From: Isurus oxyrinchus
Lineage: Eukaryota
Assembly: GCA_026770705.1 (NCBI GenBank)
Contig: JANJGN010000027.1
Coordinates: forward strand, 28,086,001 to 28,150,000
Direction of reading: 5' to 3'
Length of the DNA stretch: 64,000 nucleotides
Positions 26,083-54,404 of this stretch are shown piece by piece (within the stretch, counting starts at the first letter, position 1; every line of letters starts with the position of its first letter). The notes beneath the pieces were generated by a model. That model worked only from the letters and a program-made list of their open reading frames with translations. It did not search any database and had not been told where the DNA came from. Position numbers and translations under genes: made by a program.

Positions 26083-26149
26083 CTGATATGTTGTTCAACA
26101 CTTCCTTAAGATGGTTGAAACTATTTAGAAGTAGATCTTGCTCTTCATC
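26083..26149 (-). CDS. GBF1: GBF1 coding exon 3 (67 nt)
   Basis: ttttatttcag|GATGAAGAGCAA...ATATCAG|gtacct translates to DEEQDLLLNSFNHLKEVLNNIS plus 1 nt, continuing exon 2 in frame (human DEERDPLLHSFGHLKEVLNSIT). No further GBF1 exon was recognised in 1-26082, so the rest of the gene probably lies left of the window. Confidence 0.95.
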
Positions 26150-28062
26150 CTGAAATAAAAACATAAAGTATGAAAATATAGATTATAAGCAATTATGCTG
26201 ATTTAAGTAATATTTGCTGCCCAGCAGACTCAAAGATCAAAGGGAGGAATGTGCATTTTAGAACTTGAAGTGCCTAGCTATGTCCAGCAGATTGCTTCAT
26301 ACTCTTCCAAATTCCTTTGTGGGCAATGCACAGTTATAAGGGTGTTTGATTGCTACCTAATCAACTAATGAGTTTTCAAACTGGGAAGACTGACTATGAA
26401 CCAAACACAACATGTTGCGAGATTGAAAACCACACAAACTGCCCTGATACCAACAGATTTTAAACTTGCTGCCACAAAGAAATTAAGTCTATAATCATGT
26501 TTAATTTAGAGCAAGACTTTCTGACCCTATTGTCTGGCAATCAATACAAACACGGCCATTGATGCTTCATAATCAGACGCCTCTCTAAAAACATGCATTG
26601 GGAATTCGGAAAAACCAAGTAGCACTTCTGAGTGATCTACCTCAGTCAGAATTGAACTTTCTCTGCAAGCTCACTCAAAATAACCATTTTAGAATTGGCC
26701 ACATTAATTTTGTGGTATTTACTTCAGTTTTGGGGGTAGATCCATAGATTTATCTAACTACAAATGCAACCAAAGCATTTAACCATCGACATTCTGACAC
26801 AATATCACTAACTGCACTGCCTCAATTTTTTTAGCTCCATTAGAAGAGAAGCAGGAACAGGCCTCAGAATCCTTTTCACGGCCCAATGTCACTTTGTCAT
26901 GCTGTGACCAGTTTACCCACTAACACAAGTTCAATCCTTGTACTCAGAAATCGCACACCAAAATTTTGATATCATGAGCAGTGGTTATAAACCCTGAACA
27001 CTAGTTTTTACCATTATTACAACCATCAACACAAGTGTGTTGAAGGTTCCAGGCATATGCAAGAAGCTTCACACAAATCTAACTTGCGGCTTGTGTGTGA
27101 ATGACAGTGGTGACAGTGCTCCAAGCTTCTGCAGAACTGACTGTGCACACAATTTTAGTTCATCAAGCATAAGAACCTAAATCATCGTGGTCTATACTGC
27201 AAGGTAATTGCAACCACTGTGCTCTAACTCTTATTATCTCAATTAATAATTGTTAATCTGAGATTGATCATTTTTTCTTAGCTAAGGGTATTAAGGGAAA
27301 TGGTGCCAAGGCAGATGGAAGGAGTTGGGAAACAGATCAGTCGTAATCTCAATGAATGGTAAGAAGGGCACAAGAAGCTAAATGGCTGATTCCTGTTCCT
27401 ATTTTCCAATGTATTCAACCCCTTTTATACACAGATGTAGGTTTATCTTTTAAATCGTCAAAACTGCTTTCAAACCAAGGTCCTCAATGTGAAAGGTGAG
27501 TGAGCTCTGAACCACATCAACAATCCATCCAAAAAGCACTATTAATATTTTAACGACAGATTTTTCTCTGGGGTTAACACCCTGGCTTTTGAAGACTGAT
27601 TTAACCTAATTGCACATTCACTAATAAAAAGGTTCACTTGCACATTTTTAAAGGTAGAAAATCTACACTGAACAGTAAATACTCTAAAAATGTAGAAACT
27701 GACAGTTGGGACCAATATACTATTGGGCCAGAGAAAGAAAGGATCAGAGAGACATTCACAAAGAGAGTGTTCTTTTTAAATTTGTTGAAACCACTCTCAT
27801 TACCCAATGACTACAACTTCCACATTACAATCATGTCATCAGGGAAGATATGCTATTTGAACAATAACTGAATGTACCTCCCATAATAAACAATAGTAGA
27901 TCCAACAATGCCAAATTGGTCTACAAATGATACAGACACTGCATGGGTGTTTGCGGCCACATGACATACAAGTGACTTGTCAAAAAACATTCAGCACCCA
28001 CCTGATGCTACAATTAAGTAACAGCACGCAGCAGATACATCACAGTAAAAACTATGACATAC

Positions 28063-28104
28063 CTGATACGGCCGTGTTGTTTTGCTGTCCCCCAGTAATG
28101 CAGT
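28063..28104 (-). CDS. GBF1: Candidate 42-nt alternative GBF1 cassette exon (TALLGDSKTTRPYQ)
   Basis: ttttactgctttgttttccgtttcctttgttgccgcag|ACTGCATTA...TATCAG|gtatgt; length is a multiple of 3, there is no stop, and it lies in a phase-0 intron. Confidence 0.5.
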
Positions 28105-29246
28105 CTGCGGCAACAAAGGAAACGGAAAACAAAGCAGTAAAAAACAGATTGAAGAAGCCAAGAGCTAGTAAGGTCAGCTGAGAAAAGGTAGCACCTCTGA
28201 CTCGTTTCATAACGTGGCCACATCCAAAGAACTTGTGAGAGACTCACTCAGCTCATGCTCACCTTCAAATTGGAAAGCAAATCAGAATTCCAATTGTTAG
28301 AAACTACCACCAATAACTCTAAATTTCCAAATCATTTATGTAACCTAGCATTACGTGTTAGAAGTTCAAGTTTTTTTTCAAAAACTGTCTAAAAAGTCCC
28401 ATGTTCAATCCCCACTGTAGGTCAAGTTAGCTGATACCACCCAGAGCAGCAATCCAAGTGGCCTCAATGCCTAGGCCAGGAAAGGGAAGAATACAAAAAT
28501 AAGATCTGCCAGGTTTCTGGTTCCTGACTGGTATTTAATAGTCTTTGCTGGGAAGTATTCTTGTGCAGAAATCAGGTAAGAATTCGATTGGGATTCTCAG
28601 GATTGGGAATCATCTGACTGTAGAAGAAATGCTTTAAAAAGGTATTGAAACAAGCAATTAAAAAGATGTTACTATCAGTAAAACAACTTGAAAAGTGAGT
28701 TGCACATTGCAGTTACATCACTGTCTAGCAGCTATTTACTGTAAGATCCAACATCAAGCAAAAGAAATTCGAGAAAGTTATGATAATCCTGTGCAAAATA
28801 ATTGAAATGCCACCAAATGCAAAATATAAAATTGGCAGCGTCTAGAAATATTTCAGTGTTAATTGTGCTGAAAGGATTTACATTGGTGATTAAAAGGCGT
28901 GTTCAAGAAGAACCCCTTCATAAATAAAAGGTGAGTTCCTGTTTTCCCATTTATTGATTTTTTTTAATAAACAGGCTTACCAGCAAACAAGCTTAAAGGG
29001 CACTGCTGGGTCACCTAACTTATCAGTAAATACTTCAGTTACATTTTTGCACTATTAAATTTCTGATGGCTCTTCAAATTGGTTCACAGCAGTTCCCCCA
29101 AAAGATTGTTGCCCCTTACTTGTTCTGTTATCTGCACCTGCAGTGTGGCAATGATTAAACAAGCAATTAGCAATTACCCTACTTGAAGTAATATGCACAC
29201 TGAATTTAATCTAGTCTCACACTATGCCACAACTCTCACTCTGGAC

Positions 29247-29415
29247 CAATACAAAAGCATACTCCTGATGTTGGAAATCTGAAATTAAAAACAGAAAATG
29301 GTGGAAGTTTAGTATATCATCTGATGAAAGGTCAGCAACCCGAAATGTTAGTTCTGTTTCCCTCTCCACAGATGTTGTCTGGCCTGCTGAGTAACTCCAG
29401 CATTTTCTGTTTTTA
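29247..29415. mobile_element. Partly palindromic copy of the same family
   Basis: Inverted arms (aaaacagaaaatg ... cattttctgtttt), CTGATGA at 29321-29327, and near-duplicated flanks TCTCACT[C/T]TGGAC (29234-29246 and 29416-29428). Confidence 0.72.
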
Positions 29416-31790
29416 TCTCACTTTGGACTGTTGAATATTAAACAAAGGTCATATTTTACAGATTAAAAGAACCAACAATAATTTAAAATTCCATTGAAAC
29501 ATTAAGTAACTGTGAAACTGTACTAAGAGGAAATTCCCAAGAAACTTTAATATATTAATTATACTTTGTAATAAACATCATGGGATGTAGCAGCAAGTTT
29601 CTAAACGGTCTGGTCTGACAGTTGCCTTTTCATTTCAGTTTCTGTAAGAGTGTATCTCAATGTAGCTTCACCCTTCAAGGAAGCCAATGTGAGTTTGTAT
29701 TTGAATCGGTTACCAAAATTTCTGGAAAAATTCTCAAACTTCTCCAAATATTATCTTTAATCCAACAGATGTAGGAACTCTCCAACATTCTTTGACTTAG
29801 CCTGGGACAGACAATGACACATAATTCCTAGCAAGCATAAGGACTTGTGAATAAGTTCTCAAGGAGATGAACACAACTATAGCGAATGATTACTGTTGTT
29901 ATCAACAACATAAAAATATGATTTTTTATCTCCAAAGGCTCACTCAGGTATATTTTCCAGACAAGGACCTTTAACAAGAAATTCACAGGACAAAACTGTA
30001 GCTGTACCACCAAACAAGGACCACCTGTTCCTGACATTCATGTAGCCATTTACACTTTAAATCTGTGAAGCAAAGTGATCCACTTTTTAATAATAAAAAT
30101 TCCTAAATCATGACAGCCTCACTAGTTTGCATTTCTTTGCATTCACTTTTGTAATTAACAGTCCTGTGAAATGCATCATGACTTCTCCCTACACCCCTCT
30201 TTAGCCAGCCTCAAGGAAATCAGCATAATTCATCTGGTACAGTTAGCATCCTAATAATGCTGGCCCTTCAGCGTGAAAGCACCTGGCCTCCTCTTGGCAC
30301 CTTCCGATGCCAGTATTGTCATTGTTTGTCCCCACGTGATGAACTAGAAGTGAAAAGCCTCATCTCACCACTACACAGCAATCCAACATAGAAGTGAAGA
30401 TATCTGTCAGTCAGAAAAGTAGAATTTTCCAAACGTGCCCTGCAAAAGAATTATTGCACAACCTGAAGGCATTTATGAAGTTTTATTAGAAAATGAGTGA
30501 AGCATTTTAGCTACTGAAATGATAACTATATACAAGTGTCTAACGACAATGATTTTCCACACTCACCCCAGCAAACTGCCTGACACAAAAATTACTTGGG
30601 ACATGATTAACTGCACCATAATTGACCACAGTACCCTGGGCTAGAAATGACGAAAAGAACAATTCTTATTTAGCAGCTTTTGCTGAAACGTGTGACTATC
30701 AGATGAAGACAGCCTTAAATGCCGCTATGATGCCGCATATGATGTAATAGCTGCCAACACACAGGGCCTGGGCTCAAATATAACTTCTGGTTTGTTCAGT
30801 GACATGGCCAAAGACAGCCAGAAACTGTTCAACTACCCAACAAAGGAGTTGGTATCTTCAAGAAAGAATGGAGGGCGGTGGGGTATAAGAGAATGGATCA
30901 CCCAAACGAAGTTTCTCTTTTTCAGGTGGCAAATAAACAAGTTGCTGCTCACCACTGGAAAAAATTCTCTAATTACTTTCTTTGTTGCTCCTCAGCCCAC
31001 ATTCACAGCGTAAGATCAGTAAGGAAACAAGGAAAAATAACTTAAATTGTCATGCAGATTTGAACTCTCAAACAGGACATGTGAATTTAAATGGATGGCT
31101 AGTTTTTGGTTCTGGCATAAAAACTTCTAGAAGGTTAGCAGAACACAGGCTCAACCGCCCATAAGGTCTTCAGCTGCTCCTGTTTCTTACATTGTTCCTA
31201 ACACCGACCATAAGAGGTCACAATGCTAAACATTCCTTGGTAACAACTAGAGGTTCACTATATGCCACTGAATAACAAAATAACTCACTGAACATGAGCG
31301 GTCAACCTGGGCCCAATATGGAAATTTCTGTCCACAGTGACCCTATGAATTGAAGACACAAGAAGCCTCCTGGCATTTTCCCTCATTCCACTCAGCCCAC
31401 TGAAATGGCAGCAGCTGAACCTTTCAGTTCATTGCGACATTAAACAAAGTGGCACAGTCTGAAAAAATAGTATCCAGAAAGGCTAAATCATGAAGTGTCT
31501 ACAATTTAGTTTTCATTCTCCATCTAAGGCCAGTGGCTGAGTAACATATCAACAACATATCTGTAATACTCAATACATGGTTCAAGCACTGCACAAGCAA
31601 AGAGACATTGTATAAACGCACAACCAACACTAAGACACTAACTAGCAGACAAGTGCAGCCTTGCTACCACAATCATATTCAAGGATCATCCACAACAAAT
31701 TTGGCAATCATACAGAATATATGATGTAGTGTACTACATTAATGTGAACCACAGGACAGCAGAAAGAAAAGGTTCCTCAGAAAAACTTAC

Positions 31791-31886
31791 CAATGGAGTA
31801 TGAGTGGTCCATCTTGAATTTCGCTTTATAGCACCAACGACACTATTTATTTCACCTTGCACAATATAAATGCCTTTATCTACCAT
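31791..31886 (-). CDS. GBF1: GBF1 first coding exon (exon 2; whole exon 31791-31896 including 10 nt of 5'UTR)
   Basis: Reverse complement reads tttcccctttgcag|atccttcact ATG...CCATTG|gtaagt and translates to MVDKGIYIVQGEINSVVGAIKRNSRWTTHTPL, matching the GBF1 N-terminus (human MVDKNIYI...AIKRNARWSTHTPL). Splice sites are canonical; the following intron is phase 0. Confidence 0.96.
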
Positions 31887-33539
31887 AGTGAAGGATCTGC
31901 AAAGGGGAAACAAATGGTTATATAAAATTGGAAAGAATTGCCTAGTGAGGATTTCATTCTGTACAAATTCATATACAAATTATTTTAAATGTTGGAAACA
32001 TAAGCTCACACTCAGTCACAGCCACATTATTGAAGGTGAATAAAACAAAGGATTTGCTTTCTCTGCCAGGTGTAAAATGGAATAATCTTTACATGGTGCT
32101 TCAAACTTGATCAACATCCTTACATTCAGTAATATAAATACAACGCGAGTTCCTTTGCAATCTTGCATTGGGAAGTGCTGGGTCTGGAAGTGAGCAGATT
32201 AGGAAGGTTTCAGGTTAATCTCCATTTTCTGCTACGATAGCTGATCATGAACATGCTAGCAGTAATTTGTGTAGGCATTCCACGGCTGATCACAGGAGCA
32301 AGAATTGCCAGTGTTAATAATTATCCAATGGCCCCAAAGGGAAAGGACGTATTTGGCATCACTGCAAAACAGTTTCACTCTAACGAAGCAACAATTGCAG
32401 CTAACTGCAGCAAAACTAACTTAAGGTCAAGATTTAGGGTCAGGAGGGACCACCTTAAAAAGAGTGCAACCATACCTGGGTAAAACATTCAAAGTTAAAA
32501 TATCAGGTCAGTGCAGTGTAGCTGGAGTATTATCCATTCTACAGAATTAGTTCCTTTGCTTTGTTGCTTTTGCATTTAATTATGCTTAAAAATGTATTTT
32601 AAAATATTCATGCCTCAAAGTTTCTCCAATTTTAAGTCAAACCAATAAATAGCACACCAAATTTACTGAAAACGAAATACTTGAAAAGATATTTAAAGAC
32701 ATTTAAACCTCTTTGGAAAATCCTATAGGTTTCCAAAAGTGCTTGCACTAATACCATCTGTCTATAACAACAGATATTCTTGAAAGATTAATACATAGGG
32801 TTTTGTTTTCCATAACAATAAATTCCAAGGCCTCAGGCCAGCTTAATCCTCTTTAAATAATCAATGGAAATTGGTACACCTTGATTGCGTCAATTATGAT
32901 TATTTATAGATGCCAAACTTGAACAAAGAGTACACAAAGTAAGGATTGCTGACTAACAAATTGCAAATGGCTCCAAAATTACTGAATTAACAGCTACATC
33001 TATCACCAACTCCACACAATTTCCCAAAACTGGAGTCAGTTGTAATGTCACCAATTCAGGACAGCACAATTTGCAACGTTCCTAAGGTTTCAGCAATCCA
33101 ACCTACCTGCAACACTGCTAGGATAATCGCTCCCACAAACTGACTATTACCTTTGACCTAATTATTACTTAAGTATACTGATGGAAATTTAATAGAGGCC
33201 ACTGTGGGTTCAAAGTTAGATAAACAAAAAATGCAAAACTCCTCCACAAATCTAGTTTCTTCAGGTGAGATATCATTCACCAGAAGGGAGTTGACTTCAG
33301 CTGTTAACATTCGCTTCCTGCCTAGCATTACTATTGCAGCAAAGTCAAGGTCTGTGTATAAGTTTCCACCAACTTTATCTTCATCACCAGCAACATATCA
33401 CTTCACTCCAAGAATCAAATATAGACTTTGTGCCCATAAAATTATGGATTTACAACGTTCAGGCTCTTTGTAGGCCATATGAGAAATGAGAAGCCAATGG
33501 GCCACCAATTTCCTTGCTGTGACAAATCTGATTCAGAAC

Positions 33540-35575: not shown

Positions 35576-37214
35576 TTTAAGTTTTTAGTCTACTAAACAA
35601 TGTGATAGGTTTGTTGGAAGTATGCTATTGAAACATGTAACAATATCAGTACAGTTAGCCACTGCACAATATCTATGCCTTGAACTCTCATGTCAATATC
35701 ACCTTGATTACACTTTCACCTACCTCACCCTTCTACTGGCATTTGGCTACCAAAGTAACAAACAAAAGAACATTTGTAAATAAATGACATATATGAACAA
35801 TAAACATTTGTGTGTGTTTGAGCCAGTAAAACAACCTCAAGATTCTACTAACCTCAAGTCACTTCAGCTATTTTCTATTTTGATCCCATATGAATTATTA
35901 GGTTGAACTGCCTTAGCGTTAATTTCAAGACAATTAGAAAAATATGCAGATCCCTATTTTGCTTTGACTTTTTGTTTAGTACTTCTGAAAGCTGTTTAGA
36001 AATGTTGAGAGATGAAATCTTTGGTGTTAAACCTGGATATAGGAAACAAGGCATCCCATAATATACATTCTCTCAATATAAAAACACTCTGCTAACTGTT
36101 TACTTTGAGTAAACATCTTGACTGAGATTTCAAGTTTTTGAGGATCTGCTGTTCCGGAGCTATTACCTCTCAATCCTCCTTTAAGGCACTCGGTAAAATC
36201 TGCCTCAATAAACAAGCCTTTAGTCGTCTGCCCTAATATCTCATGTGGTTCAGTGTTAAATTTTGGTTTGATAATGTTCCTGGGAAGCATCTTGAGATGG
36301 TCCACTACTTTAAAGGTACTATATAAATACAGATAATTGTTTCCTCTGGCAGCACAGGTTACAGGTGCAGTCCAGTGTGTTCCTGATTAGCTCTCTTGAC
36401 CTCACTTGGACCTGGTGGTTTGGTCAGGCCTGCAGCTGCCCACCTAGTGAGAAACCTCCTTTAGGTTTCAAGTGTGCACAGCCTTTCAGCAAAGGAATGG
36501 CAAGGGTCAAGGTAACCAACATAACAAATGAACTCTGCAGTAAGTAGGCTTCTATCAGGTTAAAAAGTAACACTGTGAGTTGCAATAGGCCTGTTCTAAT
36601 TTGATAAAGTGGTCCAGGTGGCTGAAAGCATGAATTCCAATGGAGGGGTGAAGCAAGGGAAAGATGGGCGGGGGGGGGGGGGGGGGGGGGTGGAAAACAA
36701 GACATAGGAACGGACAGTTTAGGAGAGTTGTAAGACTGATTACCAATCCTTTGGCCAGTGGAAACAGGACAACTCCATTAAGAATCTTCCTGATGTTGAA
36801 CGCCTCTATTCAATCGCCCCTTAACCATTTCTACTCTTAGGAGAACCACCCCAGCTTCTCCACATAGCAGAAGTACCTGGATACCATTCCAGCAAATGCC
36901 CTCTGCACCTTCGCCAATGCCCTGTCATCCTTCCTGAAGGGTCGAGCCCAGAAGTGGATACAATACTCTAACTGGGGGGGTGGCAACTCAGGAGTTTATA
37001 AAGGCCTTTGGTGGTTGTCAGGCCCCCGCCAATAGGCAGTCCCCACTTTAGGTAGGTAGGGGGGGGGGGGGGGGGGGGTGATTAGCCGCAGAGTCAGAGC
37101 TCTCAATCCTGGCATTATAAAGAGGAGAGGCTGAGGGAAGTTGTGGAGTGAGTGGATGGGTGGGTGTGCAGGGGCCTTGGGAGTGAGGACACAGGGAGAG
37201 AGAGAGAAACTTAC

Positions 37215-37450
37215 CCCCTGGGGGGAACTTCCAACACATCCAAGATGGCGGCCTGGTTACCGCAGCCTGTGGAGAGAGATGGGGAGACTGGGGGAAAAAA
37301 ACCCAGGCGATACCCTCGGCCGATCACCTTGGATCATTAACAACCCGAGCAGCAGACAGCCCCGAGCTACATCACAGTCCCCAGCCCCCGAGTGAGAAGC
37401 GAAGCTTTTCCGCCTGCCGGAGACGCTGCAAAGCGGCGGCTCCCTGGGAA
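37215..37450 (-). other. GBF1: GBF1 non-coding exon 1 (5' boundary approximate)
   Basis: Minus-strand donor GGG|GTAAGT (GT at 37214-37213) at the edge of a CpG-rich island upstream of exon 2, with a YY1 motif CAAGATGGCGGC at 37241-37252. The TSS cannot be located exactly. Confidence 0.7.
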
Positions 37451-51600: not shown

Positions 51601-51971
51601 GTAAAAACAACAATTACACAATATTCTTGATCTAGTTATGACGTGTCGAGGAAAAGGTTAATACAAAGATCAGATCTGCATCAACAGAAATTATTTTTTT
51701 TTGCTTCTAAGCTGCTTCTCTCGCTGGCGTCTTTTCGGCCCATCGATTGAAATTCCTTGTGACTAACCCGCATTTAGAATCCGCCCCGGTGGATCATGAA
51801 TCATTTTCTGAATCGCGAATAGCGATTTGGAAACCTCATAAGCCCCATCAAATGGGTAAAAATCACATGGGTAAAAATCCACAAACACCCGTTTCTTTAG
51901 TAACCTGAGACGCTAAGTGGCGATAGAACTTTTCTGCTGTCAGTTAGGACGCGGATAACTCCGTTTATTGA

Positions 51972-52340
<369 letters not shown>

Positions 52341-53840
52341 TGAGCTTTGGGCGCGGAATTAAAGTTGATAATAGTTCCTATGCGAAAGTCTGGCATCTGC
52401 CCAAAAGGTCAAGTTAGCCCCTTACATGGCCAGAAAAATGGATTCTCGAATAATCCAGAGAAATTGTGAAAGGTGAAGGGTTCGCCAAGTCCTTAAGACA
52501 AACACAATCAGGCACACCTGATCCCGAATTGTCCAAAGAACCAAATCATTTCCCATTCATTTCCGATGCTGCGGATCAATGTGCGGATGCAGCCGGCTAA
52601 CTGGATTTCAGCAGTCGGATCGAAGCACACTCTCTACGTTGCTCTCCCTATCATTCATTGTTTTATTACCCTGGACGCTGAATATAGTCACTTCAACACA
52701 CTCAATCCCCCCACTACATTCCATGTCATGCTCTTTTTTTTTTGATTTAGAGCCTGTTGGACACTAAGTAATTAAAATCATTGACGGATAATATTACACG
52801 CCGGGCATTTGATATTTATGATCACTCTATAAATCTAGATCCGAGCATGACAGCCATTGGCCATGTAATTCAGCGGAGCCCAGAGTGCTAAAGTAATGTA
52901 GGAAATGCAGAGGAAGAGTAAACAGCATGAGAATCGTGTAAGATCTCAAGGAAATTCGTTTTTTTTTAGATCATTTAGCAACCAATTCCAAAGCTGTCTG
53001 TTGTCGCAATCATTTGGACATGCTGCAAGTGAATAACGGCGGACATCTGTTATTAACCCTGCGTTATAAATGAGAGAACAGAATTAGTCTGAAGCTTATA
53101 ATATTTTGGCGTGTTCTCTAAAGTAATTACGTTCAATCTAGAAATTAGGCCCTCATGAATACCTAGCAACTATTCCGATTTGTTTTATCTCTTGGAGCAA
53201 GATACATGTACACGTTTGTTGAAGTTACAGGGGTCAGAAATGAGTTGACATGAACCATTCTATCGTCACGACAATCGAGTTTCAGGGAGCAATGAACATT
53301 GGAACTTGAAGATAACTTTTTTTGAACGTTGTTACGATCTGGAATGGGCTGCCTGAAGCAGATGGGGCGGTGGAAGCAGATTCAATCATAACTTTCAAAG
53401 GGAATTGGATAAATATTTGAAAAGGTGGGTGGGGGTGGGGGTGGGGATGTTAGGCCTATGGGGAAAGGGCAGGCGGGTGGAGACCCTTGTCAAGGAGCAG
53501 ACACAGGTGTGATGAGCTCCTGTGATTTTATAATTTATACACTGTGATTTACATTTAGATTCAATTTTACTCCGAAACAGTCTCTTTTCCGTTCATTTGT
53601 GACAGCATCACATACAATTATTACCAAAGGATTCTCATTACGCGTACAGGTTAGACCACGTGAACCTGAAGTAGTTGGACTTGTCTCGGGTAAAATTTGA
53701 TTGGGAATTTAACATTTGTATTTCGAGTGAAATAACACCTGAACGTAAAGGAGTCTGTTTAACCGATCACTTGTTTCATAAACACACGTTAAACACACGC
53801 GCGCCAGCCTACAAATAATAGTGTTTCCTTTCTGATCTAG

Positions 53841-54404
<564 letters not shown>

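Follow-up and report, generated by a model that had tools for sequence, protein, structure and literature searches.

A 42-nt in-frame cassette exon in intron 2 of Isurus oxyrinchus GBF1, shared with other sharks and rays, that would lengthen a predicted DCB surface loop

The minus strand of the window (the whole 64,000-nt stretch analysed here, from a 5.0 Gb genome) carries the 5′ end of GBF1, and its intron 2 contains a 42-nt cassette that is almost certainly a real exon (Table 1). We consider it moderately probable that this is a conserved, regulated cassette exon of shark and ray GBF1, functional at protein level. Under such a model the cassette would likely be skipped by default, with inclusion confined to some particular tissue or stage, for which neural or retinal tissue would be our best guess. 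Inclusion would lengthen the predicted DCB surface loop between helices 1 and 2 by 14 residues, and the longer loop would likely adjust how GBF1 is recruited to the Golgi or binds small GTPases, not how it folds or dimerises. The exon had been proposed by a sequence-only reading of the window, whose coordinates (28104-28063), 42-nt length, phase 0, stop-free frame and L32/D33 insertion site all proved correct in the sequence, and whose predicted junctions, 31791>28104 and 28063>26149, match the exon boundaries.

The host gene is a large ARF-GEF of the GBF/Gea type: its N-terminal DCB fold matches that of Gea2, and a Sec7 domain is encoded about 140 kb downstream in exons that share the contig and strand of the 5′ end. 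The peptide of exons 2 and 3 is identical to a GBF1 record labelled as basking shark, and 37 further GBF1 exons were mapped across 20 sequence stretches of this genome. The coding part of exon 2 comprises 96 nt (32 codons) and intron 2, 5641 nt long, is therefore phase 0. On the same strand at about 37050-37330, a GC-rich region has a frame (MCWKFPPG) resembling the N-terminal extension of one batoid GBF1 model; it probably represents GBF1 exon 1 and carries an upstream ATG. A PITX-type homeobox gene, by synteny probably PITX3, has its exons on the plus strand (about 51970-54400), head-to-head with GBF1. Intron 2 also harbors, at 29260-29420, a repeat fragment, probably a SINE/LINE piece, over which the contigs of each of the four presumed RNA runs reach very high depth.

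Table 1. Coordinates in the window of the GBF1 cassette exon, its splice signals and the flanking exons.
Feature	Position	Strand	Description
GBF1 exon 2	31791..31896	-	First coding exon here; ATG at 31886; donor TTG/GTAAGT, phase 0
Predicted distant branch-point region	28165..28177	-	CTGAC at -73, CTTAC at -68; motif scan only
Cassette 3′ splice-site region	28105..28164	-	58-nt AG-free U-rich tract, acceptor GCAG
Cassette exon	28063..28104	-	42 nt, phase 0, stop-free, frame-preserving; encodes TALLGDSKTTRPYQ between L32 and D33
Cassette 5′ splice site CAG/GTATGT	28057..28062	-	From sequence; top 3 of 382 GTs in intron 2
Possible second donor CAG/GTGGGT	27996..28001	-	61 nt past cassette donor
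GBF1 exon 3	26083..26149	-	Begins DEEQDLLL (DEEQDLLLNSFNHLKEVLNNIS...); encodes DCB helix 2

The U-rich tract before the cassette ends in TTGCCGCAG, and the last AG upstream of the AG-free zone is found at -62. Scored with matrices of approximate splice-site frequencies, which serve for ranking only, 2 of the 355 AGs of intron 2 equal or exceed the cassette acceptor and 3 of its 382 GTs equal or exceed the cassette donor (the cassette's own site included in both counts), and the two together form the top in-frame, stop-free AG/GT pair of the intron. The 26 kb of intron 3 that fall in the window returned three pairs, none of them in frame. The cassette sequence is single copy, with one match in a search of this genome. 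A weaker 69-nt in-frame, stop-free AG-GT candidate of intron 2 (30567-30635, minus strand) passes the same score cut-off; an orthologous insert for it was found in no scored vertebrate GBF1 protein. Splicing from the second donor listed in Table 1 would extend the exon to 103 nt, shift the frame and bring in a stop codon near the start of exon 3, possibly giving a poison variant.

Transcript contigs of this organism, in which only bridging joints were taken as evidence, show exon 2 spliced straight to exon 3 with the whole GT-AG intron removed in three of the four presumed RNA runs, from two studies (joint depths 62, 61.4 and 18.3). Since a skipping isoform exists, the exon is alternative. No junction of cassette inclusion was present in the contigs of the four runs, which come from unlabelled tissues and drop rare forms; the cassette region had no contig cover in any of the four and the fourth run had no GBF1 cover at all. 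A search for junction reads had been suggested along with the exon, and its outcome is thus divided: the skipping joint was seen, but the two predicted inclusion junctions were unseen in the four runs.

Comparative evidence comes from GBF1 protein sets made of the best 120 of 276 and the best 120 of 1445 matches, with at most 15 members per cluster. A 14-aa insert at the same GBF1 junction is present in 9 of the 80 scorable cartilaginous-fish proteins among the matches listed (87 were examined; seven were unscorable for a missing N-terminus, read-through fragments or motif mismatch). These carriers belong to four of 21 chondrichthyan RefSeq accession series, considering the members listed and with many series seen in part, and 10-13 of their 14 residues are identical to the window insert. 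Each of the four series also has insert-free GBF1 models. Seven of the proteins, from two series, belong to the Scyliorhinus cluster (XP_038638745/46/48/49 and XP_072347504/05/06) with the insert TALLGESKTTRPYQ, 13/14 identical to the window, and the other two are batoid-clade models, XP_051897278 (11/14) and XP_078284711 (10/14). A quick maximum-likelihood tree places the Scyliorhinus-cluster carriers in galeomorph sharks and the latter two in batoids, both clades with SH-aLRT 100. Because carriers fall in both clades, one gain before the shark/batoid split is the simplest reading, and we infer an origin in the elasmobranch (possibly chondrichthyan) stem. The insert was absent among the members listed of the two closest, basking-shark-like RefSeq series (X1/X3/X5 and X3-X6) and from the chimaera GBF1 protein models examined; patchy annotation or losses would most simply account for the non-carrier chondrichthyan series. 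A protein search centred on the insert returned seven candidates, none at E<=0.1, with the score split by the gap.

Outside cartilaginous fish the site is empty in every protein model that could be scored: 0 of 371 bony-vertebrate GBF1 proteins among the matches listed have any insert there, an absence from protein models and not from genomes. This set (404 proteins examined, 33 unscorable for the same three reasons) spans teleosts, gar, coelacanth, lungfish, frogs, crocodilians, birds, monotremes, marsupials and placentals, human isoform 2 included. The segment around the insertion point has a fixed length in 441 of 451 scorable vertebrate proteins among the matches listed, and none of the 53 N-terminally complete homologues examined from a 50%-identity representative search (1747 matches) has a similar insert. 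The expectation that the cassette would be conserved in other chondrichthyans and missing from the mammalian protein is therefore borne out (9/80 versus 0/371). Its description as a hidden exon has to be given up, for automatic annotation in RefSeq already includes it in another four elasmobranch series. In the literature searched, PMC6724607, PMC12152634 and PMC11837677 included, we found no description of this GBF1 cassette; supplements and VastDB-type tables may list it.

Between catshark and the two batoids the insert is 12/14 and 11/14 identical (79-86%), compared with 66-73% in the linkers of GBF1 and 93-96% in the DCB domain. An identity above that of the linkers is suggestive of constraint, although for 14 residues the difference is not significant (binomial of about 0.16 at p=0.7, calculated by hand). 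Length, frame and both ends of the insert are preserved between sharks and batoids, and the substitutions are mostly conservative (A/V, L/F, D/E).

Modelled by AlphaFold, the catshark DCB takes the same helical fold whether the insert is present or absent (pTM 0.88 and 0.89; pLDDT 91.7 and 92.9), and the DCB model matches yeast Gea2 8EZJ (TM 0.80, rmsd 2.2). Helix 1 of the model stops at 24-27; the insert occupies a low-confidence loop at 28-43 (pLDDT 53-70) plus the start of helix 2, which its last residues join. Across 53 diverse GBF/Gea homologues the helix 1-helix 2 loop measures 15-22 residues in 49 and 29-41 in the remaining four or five; varying from 15 to 41 in length, it is an insert-tolerant surface loop. 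One Chiloscyllium-cluster GBF1 model carries a 50-aa insert at residue 99, another DCB exon junction, possibly an annotation artefact.

By alignment, Gea2 P71, F72 and L79 match the sixth, seventh and 14th residues past the insertion point. At 26149-26130 in exon 3 the motif is DLLL in galeomorph sharks and DPLL in other vertebrates (38 versus 422 proteins), and the proline replaced by leucine is the one that aligns to P71 in the Arl1 interface of Gea2. In mammals, ARL1 works through BIG1/2 and is not known to act through GBF1. The Gea2 study reports that P71, F72 and L79 contact Arl1, that the P71A and L79A mutants retained Arl1 binding, and that the dimer core is formed by L128, L167, F171, V209 and V223, with helix-1 residues and R80 making peripheral contacts (PMC10908827). 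An effect on the dimer interface was considered as the primary role and rejected, the Gea2 dimer core being far from the insert; the connection with DCB dimerisation drawn when the exon was proposed finds no backing, given that both the Gea2 comparison and AlphaFold put the insert outside that core. Golgi targeting of human GBF1 requires its residues 1-37 (PMC10512945, citing Viktorova 2019), and the insertion point at 32/33 falls inside them. The ARMH3-binding region, GBF1 364-395 (PMC13427656), is away from the insert loop. Because the insert adjoins residues that match the Arl1 face of yeast Gea2, sits within the Golgi-targeting 37 residues and is far from the dimer core, inclusion may affect membrane recruitment or contact with a small GTPase and leave dimerisation alone. 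Counting against such a role, the Arl1 site has been demonstrated in yeast Gea2 only, the single Gea2 mutants kept their Arl1 binding, and galeomorph sharks have already lost the conserved proline.

Which factor might control inclusion is a question of local signals. Upstream of the acceptor, UGC occurs at -8 and -32 and UCU/CUC from -60 to -44. The UGC near the acceptor reported in the sequence-only reading is thus there, but it is common at the 37 other GBF1 acceptors of this genome, being found within -35..-4 at 11 and within -20..-4 at six; AG-free zones of at least 58 nt precede five of them, and two combine UGC with such a zone. Five CpGs in 141 nt around the cassette are matched by 2.7% of 225 background windows; the claim of CpG retention in the flanks is nonetheless a weaker one, as this 141-nt interval was picked post hoc and two of its five CpGs are inside the exon. 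A looser length limit for microexons is 51 nt. In a preprint whose microexons measure 6-27 nt and whose constitutive controls were 42-nt exons, 79% and 74% of the regulated microexons carry a UGC located between the branch point and the AG (bioRxiv 10.1101/2024.09.17.613571).

These signals bear on a narrower form of our favored explanation, in which inclusion in neurons or retina would depend on SRRM3/4 (nSR100) acting via the acceptor UGC, and which we regard as possible though doubtful. UGC at both positions, UCU/CUC, the 58-nt AG-free tract, the predicted distant branch point and the strong donor are compatible with that architecture, and default skipping in the transcript contigs would agree with it. 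Against these stand the motif background, which leaves a likelihood ratio of only about 2.5, and a length of 42 nt, beyond the 6-27 nt of that microexon set and equal to its constitutive controls (bioRxiv 10.1101/2024.09.17.613571). The microexon signature that had been claimed therefore stands as an architecture and not as a diagnosis. Since the exon exceeds the SRRM3/4 length of at most 27 nt and the jawed-vertebrate conservation typical, if not obligatory, of that class is missing from the 371 bony-vertebrate protein models among the matches listed, the cassette should not be classed with the SRRM3/4 microexons. Control by MBNL, which would make it an exon of muscle or heart, is very unlikely. 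PMC11837677 gives YGCY as the MBNL motif, and three copies lie in the 100 nt downstream at +30, +37 and +67, but 13.6% of 317 background windows of 100 nt hold as many; the YGCY motifs previously put forward as a signal are thus not enriched, and no RBFOX GCAUG occurs within 200 nt downstream of the cassette.

Function at protein level has its own competitor, a conserved intronic element or an exon leaking at low level everywhere, with a functionless peptide annotated only where RNA-seq is deep. The patchy annotation (4/21 series, among the members listed), skipping in all three informative runs, a peptide conservation not significantly above that of the linkers and the tolerance of the loop to inserts would all be expected of it. 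Length, frame and both ends retained from sharks to batoids, mostly conservative changes and splice sites among the strongest in intron 2 argue the other way, and we find this account rather unlikely. That the cassette is a chance pseudo-exon peculiar to this genome is hardly credible: no inclusion was seen in this organism and the 30635-30567 candidate passes the same cut-off, but transcript models from another four elasmobranch series carry an orthologous peptide, an orthology that refutes the pseudo-exon unless those models are themselves without RNA support. We return, then, to a regulated exon of sharks and rays. Patchy annotation and splice architecture are the reasons to call it tissue-regulated, and both its tissue restriction and any effect on partner binding are our deductions.

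The closest counterparts of the cassette are the RefSeq elasmobranch GBF1 models, with the same insert, the same junction and skipping isoforms as well, although they are automatic models only. Neural, retinal and islet microexons of the SRRM3/4 program resemble it in being frame-preserving and default-skipped, with an acceptor UGC, a long AG-free tract and a strong donor in a trafficking gene; those described in the preprint cited above are 6-27 nt long and traced across jawed vertebrates, whereas the GBF1 cassette has 42 nt and is seen only in elasmobranchs. Other short optional pieces of the same gene are likewise small and in frame: this genome also has the 36-nt optional exon AYxIxWKNKRVQ after the DCB and a 4-aa VSQD extension. 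Those pieces are located in linkers and shared with bony vertebrates, while the cassette is inside the DCB and seen only in elasmobranchs. The 36-nt exon (AYTILWKNKRVQ, minus strand, about 1.9 kb from the upper end of contig positions 27986001-27996000) is common to teleost and frog isoforms and has a UGC about 20 nt upstream of its acceptor. A functional model is offered by the diglycine/triglycine microexon of cytohesin-1, another ARF-GEF, in which 3 nt in the PH domain alter membrane targeting, as characterised biochemically in work covered by PMC6724607; the GBF1 cassette differs in adding 42 nt to the DCB. Taken together, it likely behaves as a lineage-restricted, tissue-regulated in-frame cassette in a gene for membrane trafficking.

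The finding would surprise few specialists, since this is one lineage-restricted alternative exon among thousands and has already been annotated automatically. The regulation and roles of ARF GEF splice isoforms are described as largely unknown in a field review (PMC6724607), and GBF1 cannot be targeted to the Golgi without its extreme N-terminus, by a mechanism that PMC10512945 calls unclear. We can speculate on a bolder version, quite unlikely in our estimation, in which a neuron- or photoreceptor-specific exon would put a Ser/Thr-rich, basic 14-residue loop over the GTPase-binding face of the DCB and so switch the recruitment of GBF1 to the Golgi. If that were true, nature would have supplied an insertion probe for the N-terminal segment on which targeting depends in mammals. 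An insert kept by sharks and rays in an otherwise length-fixed segment is a ready variant for testing that surface.
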